From a phage, in NCBI GenBank assembly GCA_034027115.1, contig GCA_034027115.1_4703.1: a stretch of 44,537 bases of DNA; one strand, given 5' to 3'. The position numbers were made by a program, and so were the translations under genes. Every line of letters starts with the position of its first letter. The first letter of the stretch is position 1. The notes beneath the pieces were generated by a model. That model was not told where the DNA came from. It worked only from the letters and a program-made list of their open reading frames with translations, and ran no database searches. Of this stretch, positions 1,358 through 9,583 are shown piece by piece.

Positions 1358-3409
1358 ATGCTTCAAAGACTAGGGGCTTCCTTGGTGAAGTTCAAGAGTA
1401 AACTCGCTGGTGCCATCGAACGTATACTCTCAGACAAGTTAATGGACACTGTAAGCGTTAAAGATTTTGGCGCTAAAGGAGATGGTATCTCAGATGATAC
1501 TGCTGCTTTCAAAGCAGCAATAACTTGTGGCGCATCTCGTGTATTAGTACCTGCTGGTAGGTATGTGATTACTGACACCCTTTCTTTGCCATCTGGGGTC
1601 TGGTTATTGGGTGAGGGTGTTGACTATTGGGATACCTATCGTCCAGACGAGGGTAGGCTTATTAAGTCATGGAGTAAAGGAACGCACCTTGTGTTCACTG
1701 GCAGTGGGCCTAAAAACAAGCAATTTCTTAATATCTCTAATGAACGCCCAACAAAGACAATAAATAAAGTAACCTGCTCTTTTACCGACTTCACCAATAG
1801 TGATGCACAAGCAACAAAACCTGCTACACCACGTAGTATGAGTATTGCTGTATCAGTACAGGCAGGCAGTGGCTTACGCGATCTTCGTATTATGGTAAAC
1901 AATGAAGGTATCTCTGGTTACAATGACTTTGTTTCTACAAACAAGCTAGGTGACAACTGGGATATTGGGTTGCATGTATATGACAGCTCAGATGCTGTAA
2001 TTGATAATGTGCAAGTTGTTGGCTATTGGAGGGTTGCAGGTACACTCTTAACGGAGAACGACGGCTCCATCACAATGCGTGGTAATCCAGAGAAGACACT
2101 ATTTAATAAGTTCTACACTCAAGGTATCAGAGGTTTACTTATTAGGAATAGCCCACAAGTAGATGTAGTATCTCAAGAGTCAGCAACCAAGTTAACCATT
2201 AAAGCGAATGCTACGTCCCGTATATTAGCACAAAATGGTTTTCGAGTAGCAGGTAGTACTACGATACATAGATGGACTAGTGTTACAAGACAAGGAGACA
2301 CTTATGTATTAGATGGCATCACACCTGCGTTACCTTCTGCTTCTGACCTCGGGGTTGTTCATTTCCCATCTATGGGTAACAATTGGTCTGGTACAGTGTT
2401 CAACAATACTGTTGCTGTGTCCTTTGAGCACTCATCCGGTAGCACCTCAAGACAACTAGGACTTCCTGTATCTTTTGCTATGGAGATTGATGGCTTCCCT
2501 TGTCGTAACCTCAAGTTCATAAACTTCAAGGCACAGACTTCTTACGATGAAGGAAATACATTGTTTGGTGATATGCGCGATGCCAAGTTTGTGGCTAGTG
2601 AGTTCGAGAATGGTAGGTTGATTGCGTACGATTTGTCTCAGACCCAAGGGTACACTGGGAATATGCGGTCTGCTGTGTCTGACATGCAGTTTCATTCTAC
2701 TAATATTGAGGGCTTCACACCACGTGATTTCTTCTATGACCTAGGACACTTTCCTACTTCTTACACTGATGGTTCTTTTATCATGAAGCATTGGAGAGAA
2801 AAGGATTTACAGGTACAATGGTATAATGGTAAAGCATTCATCCGTCTACATGAAGATGATGGCCGTGTAACACTTACCAGTAAAGATGGTCTAGATTTGT
2901 ATAACTTTAGTTCTACAAAAGACGTGACGTTCAATGGTCGCAATTTTGTATTCAAAAACGATGTAAGTGAAGACGTATTGAAGTGGTTTGGCGGTTCAGG
3001 GGATATCTCTACGAAAGGCAACATCTCGCCTATGGTAGATGGGACTGCCTCTCTGGGTACAAATTTCTATCGCTGGGGCGCAGTGCATTCAGTAAATGGG
3101 ACGTTACAAACCTCTGACGGTAGGCTAAAGGAGATCCATGATATTAAACAAGAAGAACTTGATGCGGGGATTGCATTATCAGCAAGTCTAATCAAGTACC
3201 GTTGGTATGGAGAAGAAAAGTTCCACTTTGGTTGTATTGCCCAAGAGGTAATGTTAATCATGGAGAAACATAATCTAGACCCATTACAGTATGGAATGGT
3301 GCAGTATGATGAAGAGGCAGACATCTTTAGTGTAAACTATGCTGAATTGAACAGCTTCTGCATCGCAGCTCTGTCTAGGAGGTTGAATGCCATTAATCAA
3401 ATCAGTTAA
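1358..3409 (+). CDS. Tailspike protein (683 aa) with pectate-lyase-like right-handed beta-helix and C-terminal intramolecular chaperone domain; probable capsule/LPS depolymerase.
   Basis: SD AAAGGAGG 7 nt upstream of ATG. N-terminal VKDFGAKGDGISDDTAAFKAAI...VPAGRYVI motif typical of pectate-lyase-fold tailspikes. C-terminal TSDGRLKEIHDIK...FHFGCIAQEV chaperone motif. Confidence 0.85.
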   Translation: MLQRLGASLVKFKSKLAGAIERILSDKLMDTVSVKDFGAKGDGISDDTAAFKAAITCGASRVLVPAGRYVITDTLSLPSGVWLLGEGVDYWDTYRPDEGRLIKSWSKGTHLVFTGSGPKNKQFLNISNERPTKTINKVTCSFTDFTNSDAQATKPATPRSMSIAVSVQAGSGLRDLRIMVNNEGISGYNDFVSTNKLGDNWDIGLHVYDSSDAVIDNVQVVGYWRVAGTLLTENDGSITMRGNPEKTLFNKFYTQGIRGLLIRNSPQVDVVSQESATKLTIKANATSRILAQNGFRVAGSTTIHRWTSVTRQGDTYVLDGITPALPSASDLGVVHFPSMGNNWSGTVFNNTVAVSFEHSSGSTSRQLGLPVSFAMEIDGFPCRNLKFINFKAQTSYDEGNTLFGDMRDAKFVASEFENGRLIAYDLSQTQGYTGNMRSAVSDMQFHSTNIEGFTPRDFFYDLGHFPTSYTDGSFIMKHWREKDLQVQWYNGKAFIRLHEDDGRVTLTSKDGLDLYNFSSTKDVTFNGRNFVFKNDVSEDVLKWFGGSGDISTKGNISPMVDGTASLGTNFYRWGAVHSVNGTLQTSDGRLKEIHDIKQEELDAGIALSASLIKYRWYGEEKFHFGCIAQEVMLIMEKHNLDPLQYGMVQYDEEADIFSVNYAELNSFCIAALSRRLNAINQIS

Positions 3410-3536
3410 GCAAAGTGCTGTACGCCAGAACACAGAAGAGCTTATTCAATCAGGACGTGACCCTAAGCAAGCTTATGCCGTTGCCAAGGATGTACAACGT
3501 CGTGCAATGAAGAAACCTTCTGCATCTTCTGCGTAA
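3387..3536 (+). CDS. Possible small basic protein (49 aa) at the genome right end.
   Basis: ATG 4 nt after GGAGG; overlaps the tailspike 3' end; too short for the ORF track; no recognisable motif. Confidence 0.2.
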   Translation: MPLIKSVKQSAVRQNTEELIQSGRDPKQAYAVAKDVQRRAMKKPSASSA

Positions 3537-3953
3537 GCAGGTTAATGTCTTAGTGTACACAAGGGCAGACCTAGGTTTGCTCTTAGTGTATTTACAATGG
3601 AGGTCTTATGTATATACCTATGGAAGCAATAGTAGGTTGCCTATGCTTGTTGATAGGTTTCGTTATAGGCTTAATAGTAGACCCTTAGTCCTGTACAAGG
3701 ATTAACCAAAGTCAAAATTTTGATATGGTCGTGTGTGAGGTGTCTCGCCCTCGCCCTCGCCGGGTTGCCCCCATAGGGTGGCCTGAGGGGATCCGTCTTC
3801 GACGGGCAGGGCTGATGTACTCCTTGTCTAGTACAAGGGAGGCGGAGGGAACGCCTAGGGATGCCTAGGGAATGTCTTAGTGGTGGACAAGGTGATTGCC
3901 TTAGTGAAGTCTCTTAGTGCATTCCTGAGGCCATTCAGGGCGTTTATGAGGGA

Positions 3954-3983
3954 TTGACAGGGTGGATGGGCGTGGGCTATCTA
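3954..3983 (+). promoter_or_regulatory. Possible host sigma70-type early promoter (TTGACA, 18-nt spacer, TATCTA).
   Basis: Perfect -35 hexamer; weak -10; lies in the genome-end region upstream of the early genes. Confidence 0.3.
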
Positions 3984-4371
3984 TTCGTTTCGCTACGCTT
4001 CACTCACTGCTCCTCACTTCGTTCGTCGCTGCGGTAGCCTGATGTGTACCTTAGGTTATTACTTGATGGATAGCTTAGGTTAGCCTTAGTGGATTACCTT
4101 AGTTAAAGCCTTAGTGCTTCACTTAGTATCAGCTTAGTAGTGTACCTTAGTAAGTATTAGTGTCTTCTCTTAGTGATTGCACATGCAAGCATGTAAGATG
4201 CCATTAGGTCGCGGTCGGTAGACCGCTAAAGAAGGAGAATAGTAATAAGATGCAGTAGGAGGAACACCAGAAACCTAGCCAACCTAGCCTATCCTAGCTC
4301 TGTATCTATTGCTTTTCCTTAGTCTAACACGTTAGACAACCTATCTTATTCTTAGTGATGGTAACTTAGTG

Positions 4372-4400
4372 TTGACAAGATAATCTTAGTGTAATACTAT
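4372..4400 (+). promoter_or_regulatory. Candidate host sigma70-type early promoter (TTGACA, 17-nt spacer, TACTAT).
   Basis: Perfect -35, 17-nt spacing, 4/6 -10 match; about 140 nt upstream of the first early ORF. Confidence 0.4.
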
Positions 4401-4543
4401 GCATCACGTAGGCGGTGCTGAGGCACCTAGTAGCCAGCTAGTAAGGCATACGAAGAGACTAGCGCTTACATTGCTCTTTAACAATTTGCTTAGTGTAACC
4501 TATGTATGCCGTGGTTAATTACTTATTGAATGAGGGATTAACT

Positions 4544-4723
4544 ATGACATTAAACAACCGTGAACTATCCGTTCTCTTCACTCTGTTGTGCTACATGATT
4601 CGTAACAACGAATTGCTTACAGATGACGAGTTGGCACTGTATCACCGCTTTCTTAACGAAGGTTGGACCGATACAGTTAATCAATACCGTAACATGATAG
4701 ATGAGTTGAGGGAGGGTAAATAA
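4544..4723 (+). CDS. Early hypothetical protein (about 59 aa).
   Basis: ATG at 4544 preceded by GAGGGA; the ORF track frame starts at 4502; no recognisable motif. Confidence 0.5.
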   Translation: MTLNNRELSVLFTLLCYMIRNNELLTDDELALYHRFLNEGWTDTVNQYRNMIDELREGK

Positions 4724-4947
4724 TGTATCAACATGAGGTATTCTTTGAATCAGCCAGCGAAGCTATTCGCTTCTTTGAAGATATGCTGCGAAATGGTGTA
4801 GGTGTGCATGTACACCATTTCCTATTAGATTATGATACTGAATATCACAAAGTTACCTTGGTATCTGAGTATGACAATCAGGTCATTAATGAGTATCTGG
4901 GTAGTGAAGATTACGATTACGATGAAGTAATCACGACAAATCTCTAA
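4723..4947 (+). CDS. Early hypothetical acidic protein (74 aa), rich in D/E/Y.
   Basis: GGGAGGG SD; ATG overlaps the upstream stop (TAATG); strongly acidic composition. Confidence 0.55.
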   Translation: MYQHEVFFESASEAIRFFEDMLRNGVGVHVHHFLLDYDTEYHKVTLVSEYDNQVINEYLGSEDYDYDEVITTNL

Positions 4948-4955
4948 ATTAACTG

Positions 4956-4984
4956 TTGACAGCCACGGCATACAAGGTTACATT
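4956..4984 (+). promoter_or_regulatory. Candidate host sigma70-type promoter (TTGACA, 17-nt spacer, TACATT) upstream of ocr.
   Basis: Perfect -35, 17-nt spacer, -10 with T1, A2 and T6 conserved. Confidence 0.45.
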
Positions 4985-5126
4985 AAGCATCAAGACGGCG
5001 ACGTCTTTAAACATCCCGCTCTTTAACAATTTGGATGGTAACTTCTTAGTCTGGATAGGTTAAACCTAGGAGATTCTCTTGAGTCTCCTATAATGTAACC
5101 TAACTAACTAAATGAGGATTAATAAC

Positions 5127-5486
5127 ATGGCTATGTCTAATATGACTTACTCTCAGGTTTACAACACCGCTCATGCTGCATTAGTTGAACGTATCTGGAA
5201 TGATGCTATTGATTGTATTGATAACGCACATGATGCAATCCATGATGTGGCGGATAGTGCTGTACCAATCTATTATGCTGACATCTTCTCCGTGATGGCG
5301 AGTGAAGGAATTGATCATTTCTTCGAAGACTCCGGCCTGATGCCAGACACTAAGGATGTAACGGTAGTCTTGCAAGCCCGTATCTATGAGCAACTCACAA
5401 TTGATCTATGGGAACGTGTTCAGTATATGATTGTTGAATACGTCAACTCCGCCGAATATTTAGAAGAAGAAGAAGAGGAAGAATAA
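5127..5486 (+). CDS. ocr: Ocr-like DNA-mimic anti-restriction protein (T7 gp0.3 family).
   Basis: Translation MAMSNMTY...[34 protein letters not shown]...[14 protein letters not shown]... closely matches T7 Ocr as I recall it; poly-Glu C-terminus; GAGGA SD 8 nt upstream of the ATG at 5127 (the ORF track start at 5112 is an upstream in-frame ATG). Confidence 0.9.
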
Positions 5487-5677
5487 GATGGAAAAGCTAT
5501 ACAACTTTATCTTTTCAGACGGTGTAACCCTGAAGTGTTCCCTACGATTCGCACAAATTCGTGAGGAAGTACTAGGCACTACATACAAACTATTTAGCTG
5601 ACACTATAAGAGAAGGCTTAACAAGGCGTTGCTACGGTAGCGCCTGATTAAACTTTCACTTACTAGGAGTTAAGACT

Positions 5678-5905
5678 ATGGATTTAGATAGCATCATTAT
5701 GGCATTTGCTCTTATTGGCTTAAGCTGGTGCTCCTATCACCTTTACCGTGAGTTCTTATTTGATAAAGCTAAACGCAAACTAAGAAAGGAAGGCGGTAAT
5801 TACCTTTGTGTAAGAGGTGGGCTTGTAGAATACATTGCACCTAACGGCACGGAATGCGCCATTAGCAAAGATGCATTTATAGAAACGTGGCATTACATCA
5901 AGTAA
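5678..5905 (+). CDS. Early small protein with hydrophobic N-terminus (75 aa), hypothetical.
   Basis: AGGAG SD; N-terminal hydrophobic stretch IIMAFALIGLSWCSY; a degenerate phage-promoter-like sequence (ATTTAGCTGACACTATAAGAG, about 5592..5612) lies upstream. Confidence 0.55.
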   Translation: MDLDSIIMAFALIGLSWCSYHLYREFLFDKAKRKLRKEGGNYLCVRGGLVEYIAPNGTECAISKDAFIETWHYIK

Positions 5906-5968
5906 CTAGCCTATAGCCTACCTGAGTGGGCTATGTGATATTTACTTACACTATATAAGTTGACTATT

Positions 5969-6892
5969 ATGACTACTGAAAACATCCTCCTGTCTGTCCG
6001 TGAAGCTGCAACCGCTGAGATTAAGCAGCATTTGGATAATATCGGCACTTCTTACATCAAAGTTGGCGCTTGTCTGAATGAATTACGCGGTGATTTCGAA
6101 GGTCAAAAAGACTTTTTAGCTTATGTAGAATCAGAGTTCGGCATCAAGAAAGCACAATGCTACAAGCTGATGAGTGTAGCCCGTGTCTTTGAAGGAGACG
6201 AACGCTTTAAAGGTGTGGCTATGCGTGTAATGCTGGCGCTTGTTCCTTTCGCTGATGAAAATATAATCATGGAGAAGGCAGCAGAACTCGCCGCAGATGG
6301 CAAGCTGGACACTAACGCCGTAAACGCCCTGATTGATCCTAAGAAAGAGACAAAGGCCGAGACGGTACAATCTAAGGTTGAGTCGGTAAAACCGCAGGAG
6401 AACGCGACTGAGGCCGCAGAAACTATGCAAGGACATGCAACCTTTGAGGATTTCATATTAGAGAAGGCGAAAGAGGAATTACAAAGTGTGCCGCCAGCAA
6501 GTGAGTCTGGTAACGACGAATCCGCACCGTGGGAAGACAAAAGCAAGCAGGAAGACACAAAGGCAGCGCCACGGGATAACACGGCTAACACCGAGAGTAC
6601 CGCTATTGCTGGCCTTCTGGCACAAATTAAAGCACTGACCGAGCAATTACAGGCAGCTAATGACCGCATTGCCTCCTTAAGCAGCGCACGCGAAAGCAAG
6701 AAAGCAGCCGCTCCTATGCTGCCGCAATTCAAATCTTCCTGCTTCTATGCTCGCTTAGGTTTAAGCGCTGAGGAGGCAACGAAGAAAACAGCAGTTAACA
6801 AGGCACGCCGCGAACTGGTTAAGCTAGGCTACGGCGAAGGCCATGAAGCATGGCCCTTAATCTCTGAGGCAGTAGAAGAATTAACTAAGTAA
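5969..6892 (+). CDS. Early protein of unknown function (about 307 aa) immediately upstream of the RNAP gene; N-terminal helix-rich domain, acidic low-complexity middle, coiled-coil C-terminal part.
   Basis: Long ORF with consistent coding composition; start ambiguous (TTG 5960 or ATG 5969); no kinase motifs despite occupying the slot of T7 gene 0.7. Confidence 0.65.
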   Translation: MTTENILLSVREAATAEIKQHLDNIGTSYIKVGACLNELRGDFEGQKDFLAYVESEFGIKKAQCYKLMSVARVFEGDERFKGVAMRVMLALVPFADENIIMEKAAELAADGKLDTNAVNALIDPKKETKAETVQSKVESVKPQENATEAAETMQGHATFEDFILEKAKEELQSVPPASESGNDESAPWEDKSKQEDTKAAPRDNTANTESTAIAGLLAQIKALTEQLQAANDRIASLSSARESKKAAAPMLPQFKSSCFYARLGLSAEEATKKTAVNKARRELVKLGYGEGHEAWPLISEAVEELTK

Positions 6893-6955
6893 CCTTATCG
6901 GTGGCATCTTCTTAGGCGTCACCTATTAAGGTTTCTTTCACTAGGAGTAAACAAG

Positions 6956-9583
6956 ATGCAAGACCTACACGCTATTCAACTTCAACTTGAAGAAGAAATG
7001 TTTAACGGCGGTATCCGTCGCTTTGAAGCGGACCAACAACGCCAGATTGCATCCGGTAATGAATCAGACACGGCATGGAATCGCCGCTTATTGTCCGAGT
7101 TAATCGCGCCAATGGCTGAAGGTATTCAGGCATACAAGGAAGAGTATGAAGGTAAAAGAGGCCGTGCACCGCGTGCATTAGCTTTCATTAACTGCGTAGA
7201 AAACGAAGTGGCAGCATATATCACGATGAAAATCGTTATGGATATGCTGAACACGGATGTAACCTTGCAGGCTATAGCCATGAATGTAGCTGACCGCATT
7301 GAGGACCAAGTACGTTTTAGCAAGCTGGAAGGTCACGCCGCCAAATACTTTGAGAAAGTTAAGAAGTCACTTAAGGCAAGTAAGACTAAATCATATCGCC
7401 ATGCGCACAACGTAGCGGTCGTGGCTGAGAAGTCAGTAGCTGACCGTGACGCTGATTTCTCTCGCTGGGAGGCGTGGCCTAAAGGTACCTTGCTACAAAT
7501 TGGTATGACCTTGCTAGAAATACTGGAAAATAGTGTATTCTTCAATGGTCAGCCTGTCTTTCTTCGCACCTTGCGCACTAATGGTGACAAGCATGGCGTT
7601 TACTACTTACAGACTAGCGAACACGTGGGTGAATGGATAACTGCATTTAAAGAGCACGTAGCTCAGCTGAGTCCAGCCTATGCACCTTGCGTTATTCCTC
7701 CGCGTCCGTGGGTTTCTCCGTTTAATGGTGGCTTTCACACCGAGAAGGTGGCAAGTCGCATCCGTCTAGTAAAAGGTAACCGTGAGCACGTCCGTAAGCT
7801 GACTAAAAAGCAAATGCCAGCGGTTTATAAGGCTGTTAATGCATTGCAAGCCACTAAGTGGCAGGTTAACAAGGAAGTATTGCAGGTAGTAGAAGATGTT
7901 ATTCGTCTAGACCTCGGTTATGGTGTACCTTCCTTTAAGCCGCTCATTGACCGCGAGAACAAACCAGCTAACCCTGTTCCTCTTGAGTTCCAACACCTGC
8001 GAGGCCGTGAACTGAAAGAGATGCTAACACCGGAGCAATGGCAGGCCTTCATTAACTGGAAGGGTGAATGTACTAAACTGTATACCGCTGAGACTAAGCG
8101 CGGCAGCAAGTCGGCGGCGACCGTCCGCATGGTAGGACAGGCCCGTAAATACAGCCAGTTTGACGCTATTTATTTTGTATATGCACTGGATAGCCGTTCA
8201 CGCGTTTATGCGCAATCTAGCACGCTCTCGCCGCAATCAAACGACTTAGGCAAGGCATTGCTCCGTTTTACCGAAGGGCAGCGTCTTGATAGCGCTGAGG
8301 CGCTTAAGTGGTTTTTGGTGAACGGGGCGAATAACTGGGGTTGGGATAAGAAAACTTTTGACGTGCGCACCTCTAACGTGCTGGATGGCGAATTTCAAGA
8401 CATGTGCCGCGACATTGCAGCCGATCCGCTGACCTTCACTCAATGGGTAAATGCTGATTCCCCTTACGGCTTCCTTGCATGGTGCTTTGAATATGCGCGT
8501 TATCTGGATGCACTGGATGAAGGCACGCAAGACCAATTCATGACGCACCTACCCGTCCATCAAGACGGTAGTTGCTCTGGTATCCAGCACTATAGCGCGA
8601 TGTTACGCGATGAAGTAGGTGCGAAAGCAGTAAACCTTAAGCCTTCTGACTTCCCTCAAGATATTTATGGCGCGGTTGCGCAGGTTGTTATCCAGAAGAA
8701 TTACGCCTACATGAATGCAGACGATGCAGAGACTTTCACATCTGGAAGCGTCACACTTACAGGTGCAGAACTGCGTAGCATGGCTAGCGCATGGGGTATG
8801 ATAGGTATCACTCGCGGCTTAACCAAAAAGCCGGTAATGACCTTGCCTTACGGCTCCACCCGCTTAACCTGCCGTGAGTCAGTGATTGATTATATCGTTG
8901 ATTTGGAAGAAAAAGAGGCCCAACGAGCTATTGCAGAAGGGCGGACGGCGAATCCTGTTCACCCTTTTGATAATGACCGCAAAGATTACCTGACACCGGG
9001 CGCAGCTTACAACTATATGACTGCTTTAATTTGGCCTTCTATCTCTGAGGTTGTTAAAGCTCCTATAGTGGCGATGAAAATGATTCGCCAGCTTGCACGA
9101 TTCGCAGCTAAAAGAAACGAAGGGTTAGAGTACACCTTACCTACTGGTTTCATCTTGCAACAAAAGATAATGGCTACCGACATGCTACGCGTATCCACTT
9201 GCTTGATGGGTGAAATCAAGATGAGTCTACAGATTGAGACTGATGTAGTGGATGAAACGGCTATGATGGGCGCTGCTGCTCCTAACTTTGTTCACGGGCA
9301 TGATGCTAGTCATCTCATCCTGACTGTATGTGACCTCGTTGACAAGGGCATTACATCCATCGCAGTCATCCATGATTCTTTCGGTACTCACGCAGGCCGT
9401 ACAGCCGATCTACGTGATAGTCTAAGGGCAGAAATGGTGAAGATGTATCAAGGCCGTAATGCCCTGCAAAGCCTGTTAGATGAGCATGAAGAACGCTGGT
9501 TAGTAGACACCGGAATCCAAGTGCCAGAGCAAGGAGAGTTTGACCTTAACGAAATCTTAGTATCTGACTATTGCTTCGCATAA
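6956..9583 (+). CDS. Single-subunit DNA-dependent RNA polymerase, SP6-type (875 aa).
   Basis: N-terminus [32 protein letters not shown]... and long stretches ([81 protein letters not shown]) match SP6 RNAP as I recall it; AGGAG SD. Confidence 0.97.

Follow-up and report, generated by a model that had tools for sequence, protein, structure and literature searches.

An Ocr-family protein and its small neighbours in the early region of an SP6-like phage genome

Is the T7-type Ocr protein encoded near the left end of an SP6-like phage genome a newcomer there, and does a second DNA mimic stand beside it? This question is raised by positions 4,544 to 6,892 of a phage DNA stretch of 44,537 nucleotides (NCBI GenBank assembly GCA_034027115.1, contig GCA_034027115.1_4703.1), the whole of which is called the window here. 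The Ocr protein of T7 is strongly acidic and, as a dimer, mimics bent B-form DNA; it fills the DNA-binding groove of type I restriction-modification (R-M) enzymes and of PglX, the methyltransferase of the bacteriophage exclusion (BREX) system. The initial annotation of the window had recognized a high-identity Ocr at 5127-5486, implied that its presence in an SP6-like backbone is unusual, and suggested that an acidic, Tyr-rich protein encoded at 4723-4947 could be a second DNA mimic. As described below, the Ocr assignment is correct, but both the block and its Ocr are already known and form the ordinary early region of a well-sampled phage genus. The block very probably represents the canonical early (class I-like) gene set of K1E/K1-5-type Vectrevirus phages, which belong to the SP6-like Molineuxvirinae.

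Gene content and position of the early block

The open reading frames (ORFs) of the block, together with the polymerase gene that forms its downstream boundary, are listed here with their lengths in amino acids (aa) and their best PHROG families:

4544-4723, + strand: gp1 (K1-5 gp1), 59 aa; phrog_9275, E=3.9e-40; Shine-Dalgarno sequence GAGGG upstream
4723-4947, + strand: gp2, 74 aa; phrog_6403, E=1.4e-26
5127-5486, + strand: Ocr, 119 aa; phrog_2568 'ocr-like anti-restriction', E=7.5e-47
5488-5601, + strand: gp4, 37 aa; phrog_11746, E=1.5e-29
5678-5905, + strand: gp5 (K1E gp5 type), 75 aa; phrog_21597, E=9e-56
5969-6892, + strand: gp6 (SP6 gp7), 307 aa; phrog_4571, E=3e-129
6956-9583, + strand: single-subunit phage RNA polymerase, 875 aa; ORF annotated as such in all relatives

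All ORFs named in the initial annotation were present at the coordinates given there and coincide with annotated genes of phages 6948, AAPEc6, K1-5, and K1E; gp4 (5488-5601) was missing from its list. The gene order is thus gp1, gp2, ocr, gp4, gp5, gp6, and the phage RNA polymerase gene. Each of the six ORFs matches a PHROG family (E 1e-26 to 1e-129), every one is preceded by a Shine-Dalgarno sequence, and the ORFs other than ocr recur in 32 to 214 phage genomes each. Scans against Pfam, NCBIfam, and PADLOC gave no meaningful match for gp1, gp2, gp4, gp5, or gp6, so that the earlier description of the Ocr neighbours as proteins without an assigned function holds, and they belong to conserved 'hypothetical' PHROG families.

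When positions 3400-7000 were used as a megablast query, which returned 118 phage records, the best matches were the Vectrevirus phages LI10P3, 6948, and DIJ06P1, with approximately 95% identity over 95-98% of the query, and the gene order of the matched genomes was that of the window. The K1-5, K1E, and VEc3 records align with their position 1, and the SP6 record with its position 3, to window positions 3743-3745. The window therefore reads as a circularly permuted complete genome of about 44.5 kb from a Vectrevirus (the K1E/K1-5 genus of the SP6-like subfamily Molineuxvirinae), with the following approximate end:

3744, + strand: approximate physical left genome end, from the alignment of the K1-5, K1E, VEc3, and SP6 record starts

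The block at 4544-6892 lies 0.8-3.1 kb from this physical left end and stops just before the RNA polymerase gene, and by this position it is the early, first-injected region of the genome. This agrees with the initial annotation, which had placed the block where T7-like phages keep host-takeover and anti-defence genes.

Ocr at its usual locus

The product of 5127-5486 scores 139.9 bits with the Ocr family PF08684, where the cutoff is 25 (E=4.4e-41, covering positions 1-97 of the 101 in the profile), and a phmmer comparison with the T7 Ocr structure 1s7z_A aligned residues 1-117 to query residues 1-117 without a gap (E=2.8e-40). It is identical to T7 gp0.3 Ocr at 76 of 117 residues (65%), which makes the wording 'high-identity' somewhat generous, although the homology itself is clear. 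With 26 Asp and Glu against 4 Lys and Arg residues the protein has a net charge of -22 and an isoelectric point (pI) of 4.05, compared to a net charge of -28 for T7 Ocr. Of the 34 acidic positions of T7 Ocr 22 are kept and 2 are gained, so the charge feature of the DNA mimic is present in kind and not in full, and Phe54 is conserved. Based on the family match, the full-length alignment to 1s7z, and these retained acidic residues, 5127-5486 is a true member of the Ocr family, as was originally called.

The likeness to T7 gp0.3 Ocr (PDB 1S7Z, PF08684) extends over the full length and is strongest in the centre, where residues 44-96 are nearly identical; the acidic C-terminal tail, a pI of about 4, and the location as an early gene near the left genome end are also shared. 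The two proteins differ in the acidic positions that are replaced in the window allele and in the lower net charge that goes with it. In view of the 65% identity, the protein would be expected to act against type I R-M and BREX by DNA mimicry, and to form the elongated dimer, shaped like bent B-form DNA, that is seen in 1S7Z.

Ocr-type proteins are not unusual in an SP6-like backbone. SP6 gp5 (NP_853565) is annotated as an 'ocr-like' anti-restriction protein and is 77% identical to T7 Ocr, K1E gp3 is annotated as 'putative ocr protein' and K1-5 gp3 as 'ocr-like', and 'protein Ocr' appears in many Vectrevirus records, which contradicts the view implied by the initial annotation. These proteins are of the same family and are encoded at the same locus, between gp2 (or its SP6 counterpart gp4) and the gene for the 37-aa protein, but they are divergent alleles: identity to the window Ocr is 60% for SP6 gp5 and 52-53% for the K1E and K1-5 gp3 proteins, compared to 99% for the Ocr of phage 6948. 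The K1E and K1-5 proteins are also shorter (108-110 aa) and have a different N-terminus.

Two alternative explanations of the block have to be weighed, and both are hardly credible. According to one, the small ORFs (59, 74, 37, and 75 aa), or at least some of them, would be chance frames in a leader and not genes. It is true that Pfam and NCBIfam hold no family for the short gp1, gp2, gp4, and gp5, and a further 35-aa ORF with a TTG start at 4956-5063 is likely spurious, as it has no PHROG match and overlaps a promoter-like site. However, each of the four combines its strong PHROG match with a correctly spaced Shine-Dalgarno sequence, their frames are kept at the amino acid level in 32-135 genomes, down to 56-70% identity, and the spacing is typical of coupled genes, with gp1 and gp2 overlapping in ATGA and the ATG of gp4 located one base past the ocr stop codon. 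According to the other explanation, SP6-like backbones would normally have no ocr, and the gene in the window would have been acquired recently from a T7-like phage. The window Ocr is indeed slightly nearer to T7 Ocr than to SP6 gp5 or to the K1E and K1-5 proteins, and the DNA identity to K1-5, which is 76% across ocr against 90-94% in the flanks, shows an exchange of alleles at this locus. Yet ocr occupies the same position in SP6, K1E, K1-5, VEc3, AAPEc6, and 6948, and 65% identity is far below what a recent transfer from T7 itself would give. Moreover, the window allele is already carried, at 90% identity or more, by 45 phage records, and relatives with either allele have the same leader upstream of ocr to within a few bases of the start codon. 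A recent import is thus contradicted by the locus and allele data, and we retain the reading of the block as the canonical early gene set of this genus.

The acidic protein gp2

The 74-aa protein gp2 is as acidic and Tyr-rich as was noted initially: it contains 16 Asp and Glu residues (22%) against 3 Lys and Arg, 7 Tyr residues, a net charge of -13, and a pI of 4.3. Proteins of this type were found in 61 phage records, almost all of them Vectrevirus. In an alignment of 38 homologues the N-terminal half is variable, and there is almost no variation in the C-terminal third, EYDNQVITEYLGSEDYDYDEVITTNL, and none in EDYDYDEV, an acidic C-terminal segment. The match to phrog_6403 spans the full profile (positions 1-69 of 69). 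A profile search against 1.84 billion representative proteins yielded three real relatives, P0003, P0227 (74 aa), and the C-terminus of P0230 (190 aa), and none of these gave a functional lead. AlphaFold returned one confident model (predicted local distance difference test score 80, predicted template modelling score 0.69) and four poor ones (approximately 54), and from this a generic ferredoxin-like b-a-b-b-a-b fold is predicted (b, strand; a, helix). The BFVD matches to this model are uncharacterized small podophage proteins, from CrRp3, Pectobacterium phage PP1, and Proteus phage PM116 (TM score 0.72-0.79), and they support the predicted fold and not a function. The gp2 profile and gp1 also matched designer pentatricopeptide-repeat (PPR) proteins with E values down to 7e-19, and PPR proteins account for all other hits of the gp2 profile search as well as for its PDB hits. 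This likeness is an artefact, in which a weak helix-turn similarity of 22-29 residues is summed over many identical repeats with no single stretch being significant. The helix-turn segments resembling the PPR motif are residues 12-33 of gp2 and 27-55 of gp1.

The phrog_6403 family includes two more distant proteins that occupy the same slot directly after gp1, namely orf24 (AUE22229.1, vec3_03 of Vectrevirus VEc3, 69 aa) and SP6 gp4. Both match the family over its full length (E=1.6e-27 for orf24 and 2.4e-32 for SP6 gp4, within the range of 1e-26 to 1e-32 that includes gp2), and they share with gp2 the N-terminal motif MxxHE[IV][FY]; SP6 gp4 and gp2 also have a C-terminal Y[DE][DE]VIT motif in common. 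On the other hand, pairwise identity is just 16-20% and hhalign probabilities are low: the gp2 alignment matched orf24 only over 20 N-terminal residues, with a probability of 8%. What links gp2 to orf24 is their common match to the PHROG model, the slot that they share, and a multiple alignment that is plausible; the direct hhalign comparison is weak. Net charge in the family ranges from -2 for orf24, which is nearly neutral, to -14, with -7 for SP6 gp4, and because of this range the extreme acidity of gp2 is a feature of its clade and not of phrog_6403 as a whole.

Two members of the family have been examined experimentally by Silas et al. (bioRxiv 10.1101/2023.04.06.535777), who screened 200 accessory genes of phages in wild strains of E. 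coli. In that study, orf24 triggered growth arrest in strain ECOR61 via a prophage locus with an Icd-like protein, and through this exclusion system phrog_6403 is tied to host immunity. The library also contained orf96 (AFH19829.1, from phage ACG-C91), which is about 82% identical to gp2. This close homologue is outside the list of phenotype-giving genes (bioRxiv 10.1101/2023.04.06.535777), and the ECOR61 phenotype was reported for orf24 and not for orf96. For lambda on MG1655, where relief of restriction by EcoKI is scored, the screen log lists no hits other than ardA, ral, and ocr (bioRxiv 10.1101/2023.04.06.535777); this result bears on gp2 through its homologue orf96 in a pooled library, for which we found no per-gene score. 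Peptides of gp1, gp4, gp5, and gp6 are not present in the library, and aside from this screen the literature that we found on the function of K1E, K1-5, and SP6 early proteins consists of annotation-level mentions.

Could gp2 nevertheless be a second DNA mimic beside Ocr, which would block a defence or repair enzyme (type I or III R-M, BREX, RecBCD) by imitating the phosphate backbone? The density of acidic residues is high, as in DNA mimics, an acidic C-terminal segment is invariant, and gp2 is encoded early, beside ocr, in a slot that varies between relatives. The generic fold is no exclusion either, as known DNA mimics have many unrelated folds. Against this, PDB sequence and profile searches returned nothing besides the PPR repeat artefacts, no known DNA mimic was among the sequence or fold matches, and no similarity to Ocr, ArdA, Gam, Arn, Ugi, gp5.9, and other known mimics was found. 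The strong acidity is restricted to one clade of the family, and orf96 is neither among the named EcoKI hits nor among the genes with a listed phenotype. The suggestion of a second DNA mimic has therefore found no positive support beyond charge and is in our opinion very unlikely. In our view gp2 is most likely a small protein-binding factor for host takeover or counter-defence, rather than a DNA mimic. A wider proposal, which we consider unlikely as well, is that the acidic Vectrevirus clade of phrog_6403 constitutes a new anti-defence protein, possibly a nucleic-acid mimic, with a target other than EcoKI, and that diversification of the gp2, ocr, and gp5 slots is driven by recognition of their products by abortive systems of the host, of the kind seen with orf24 and the ECOR61 prophage locus.

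Variable slots, expression signals, and the remaining genes

Compared with VEc3, the window has two segments without a DNA match, 4699-4944 (gp2) and 5681-5900 (gp5), between flanks that are 89-99% identical, and the comparison with K1-5 given above shows a drop in identity at ocr. Judged by these alignments, gp2, ocr, and gp5 are three cassette-like variable slots between conserved flanks, and such slots are the signature of accessory genes that face host defences. The region between gp2 and ocr varies as well:

5018-5039, + strand: deletion junction (212 bp less than in K1-5, 6948, and AAPEc6), from DNA alignment; at a repeated GCTCTTTAACAAT motif, of which another copy is located around 4472-4486, upstream of gp1

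The 212 bp present between gp2 and ocr in these three phages is missing from the window, and the deletion falls between two copies of GCTCTTTAACAAT (compare L004:1267-1480). In the relatives, the lost segment contains an unannotated ORF of 36 codons with a Shine-Dalgarno sequence (MKGLICVERMVNGKLEILPLENQSSFKEWYGCFSLI), and K1E has still other genes at this position, gp2.5 and gp2.8. A motif GCTCTTTAACAATTTG is located upstream of both gp1 (4472-4486) and ocr (5017-5031), beside predicted hairpins, and these elements could be putative mRNA processing sites of the kind found among T7 early genes.

The candidate promoters in and ahead of the block are as follows:

4372-4400, + strand: sigma-70 promoter-like site TTGACA-17-TACTAT, upstream of gp1 and gp2; 10 of 12 consensus positions
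4956-4984, + strand: sigma-70 promoter-like site TTGACA-17-TACATT, upstream of ocr; 10 of 12 consensus positions, invariant in 6948, K1-5, and AAPEc6
5592-5614, + strand: phage RNA polymerase promoter-like site ATTTAGCTGACACTATAAGAGAA, ahead of gp5; variant of ATTTACTGGACACTATAGAAG
5939-5961, + strand: phage RNA polymerase promoter-like site ATTTACTTACACTATATAAGTT, ahead of gp6; variant of ATTTACTGGACACTATAGAAG

The phage promoter consensus ATTTACTGGACACTATAGAAG is present in about 12 copies on the + strand, and the site at 5939-5961 is preceded by a 10-bp hairpin at 5912-5935. In the class I region of T7, strong host promoters at the left end drive ocr first, then small host-directed proteins, and then the phage RNA polymerase. 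From these promoter matches and the T7 paradigm we infer that host RNA polymerase would start at the sigma-70-type promoters and transcribe through the series from gp1 to the phage polymerase gene, and that gp5 and gp6 would be transcribed additionally from the two weak phage-type promoters as soon as the phage polymerase has been produced. Ocr would then occupy the grooves of type I R-M enzymes and PglX, which would protect the incoming unmodified genome, and gp2 may bind a host protein in takeover or counter-defence. The logic of promoter, ocr, small proteins, and polymerase is the same as in T7 (genes 0.3 to 1). The two regions differ in that the five non-Ocr proteins of the window have no Pfam family, and in that the small genes besides ocr were found only in SP6-like and related phages and not in T7-like ones. 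In addition, the position of the T7 gene 0.7 kinase is taken by gp6, which has no kinase domain, and phage-type promoters are already present upstream of the polymerase gene.

Several observations weigh against this picture. The promoter-like sites are consensus matches, and the regional count of sigma-70-like sites is not above the shuffled expectation. The window Ocr has other residues at 12 of the 34 positions that are acidic in T7 Ocr, most of them in helix 1 or the C-terminal helix, and with this loss the target range of the allele could differ from that of T7 Ocr. The function of any gene in the block is based at most on homology, and Ocr is the only one that has this. For gp2, the fold depends on one of five AlphaFold 2 models being confident, and as orf96 has no listed phenotype in the screen, a counter-defence role is deduced from context only.

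K1E- and K1-5-like phages serve as agents against uropathogenic E. coli and strains with a K1 capsule, and the alleles in the gp2, ocr, and gp5 slots probably help to decide which defence-carrying strains each isolate infects. Since a member of the gp2 family triggers a prophage abortive response, typing of the slot alleles could help to explain differences in host range among near-identical therapeutic phages. Databases have listed an Ocr for K1E-, K1-5-, and SP6-type phages ever since the first genome deposits, and it carries little weight as a discovery; the interest that remains is modest and lies in the three variable slots and the role of phrog_6403.

By their distribution, gp1, gp4, and gp6 are core genes of SP6-like phages. 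The gp1 protein, which is 100% identical to K1-5 gp1 and 69% to SP6 gp3, has homologues in 102 records of Escherichia, Salmonella, and Klebsiella phages, including SP6 and Klebsiella SP6-like phages. It gave no meaningful match in the PDB either, is mildly acidic and, judging by its sequence, probably helical. The small gp4 is present in 135 phage records and follows both Ocr alleles. An unannotated homologue is located just past the ocr-like gene in the SP6 RefSeq genome (NC_004831.2, 2006-2104; 76% identity over 33 residues). In contrast, gp5 of the window type occurs in only 32 phage records, all with at least 90% identity, and the gp5 slot of K1-5, SP6, and VEc3 is filled by unrelated genes. 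The protein had been described as membrane-like; it does have one N-terminal hydrophobic stretch, followed by a basic stretch, but with a Kyte-Doolittle maximum of 1.42 over 19 residues this is borderline for a membrane helix.

The largest protein of the block, gp6, was found in 214 phage records, reaching Proteus, Erwinia, Vibrio, Pseudomonas, and Marinomonas phages, and in each of the five annotated relatives that were examined its gene immediately precedes the polymerase gene. A start at ATG 5969 (307 aa) fits the annotated homologues better than TTG 5960. In the alignment, gp6 divides into four parts. About 120 residues form a conserved N-terminal domain, which is followed by a variable acidic linker, a coiled coil, and a near-invariant C-terminus of 60 residues; the N-terminal domain is predicted to be helical and the linker disordered. 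Most homologues are 290-297 aa long, and gp6 and its closest relatives (307 aa) carry a linker insertion of 13-14 residues, TFEDFILEKAKEEL, at residues ~158-171 (window 6440-6481), which forms a short helix in the AlphaFold 2 model. One related record labels this protein 'protein kinase', which raised the question of a T7 gp0.7-type kinase. However, no kinase family was found in Pfam or NCBIfam at E values up to 1, and the model is all-helical and disordered without a match to a kinase fold. No supporting domain was found for any of the stray labels 'protein kinase', 'endolysin', and 'UPF0137' in related records. The C-terminus was also considered as a J-domain and rejected, as the hhalign probability was 2.3% over 11 columns and the HPD motif is absent, the sequence reading GYGEGHEAW.

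Owing to the circular permutation, genes from the right end of the genome stand at the start of the window. They include two tail-spike-like ORFs, 113-1273 and 1358-3409, each with a C-terminal Peptidase_S74 'chaperone of endosialidase' domain and the second also with a pectate-lyase-like domain, which suggests a dual-spike arrangement. As listed, ORF 113-1273 has an internal GTG start, and it may reach further upstream in the circular genome. At the right end of the genome, the end of the tail-spike gene is overlapped by a basic 49-aa ORF at 3387-3536 (phrog_2423, E=1e-22), for which the annotation in phage 6948 reads 'hypothetical'. Finally, a stretch of ~950 bp (3549-4495) of the non-coding leader around the genome end contains 12 + strand copies of the heptamer CTTAGTG, several of which adjoin the promoter-like site at 4372-4400. 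In the whole window, 21 copies were observed against 7.9 expected, and this number was reached in none of the shuffles.

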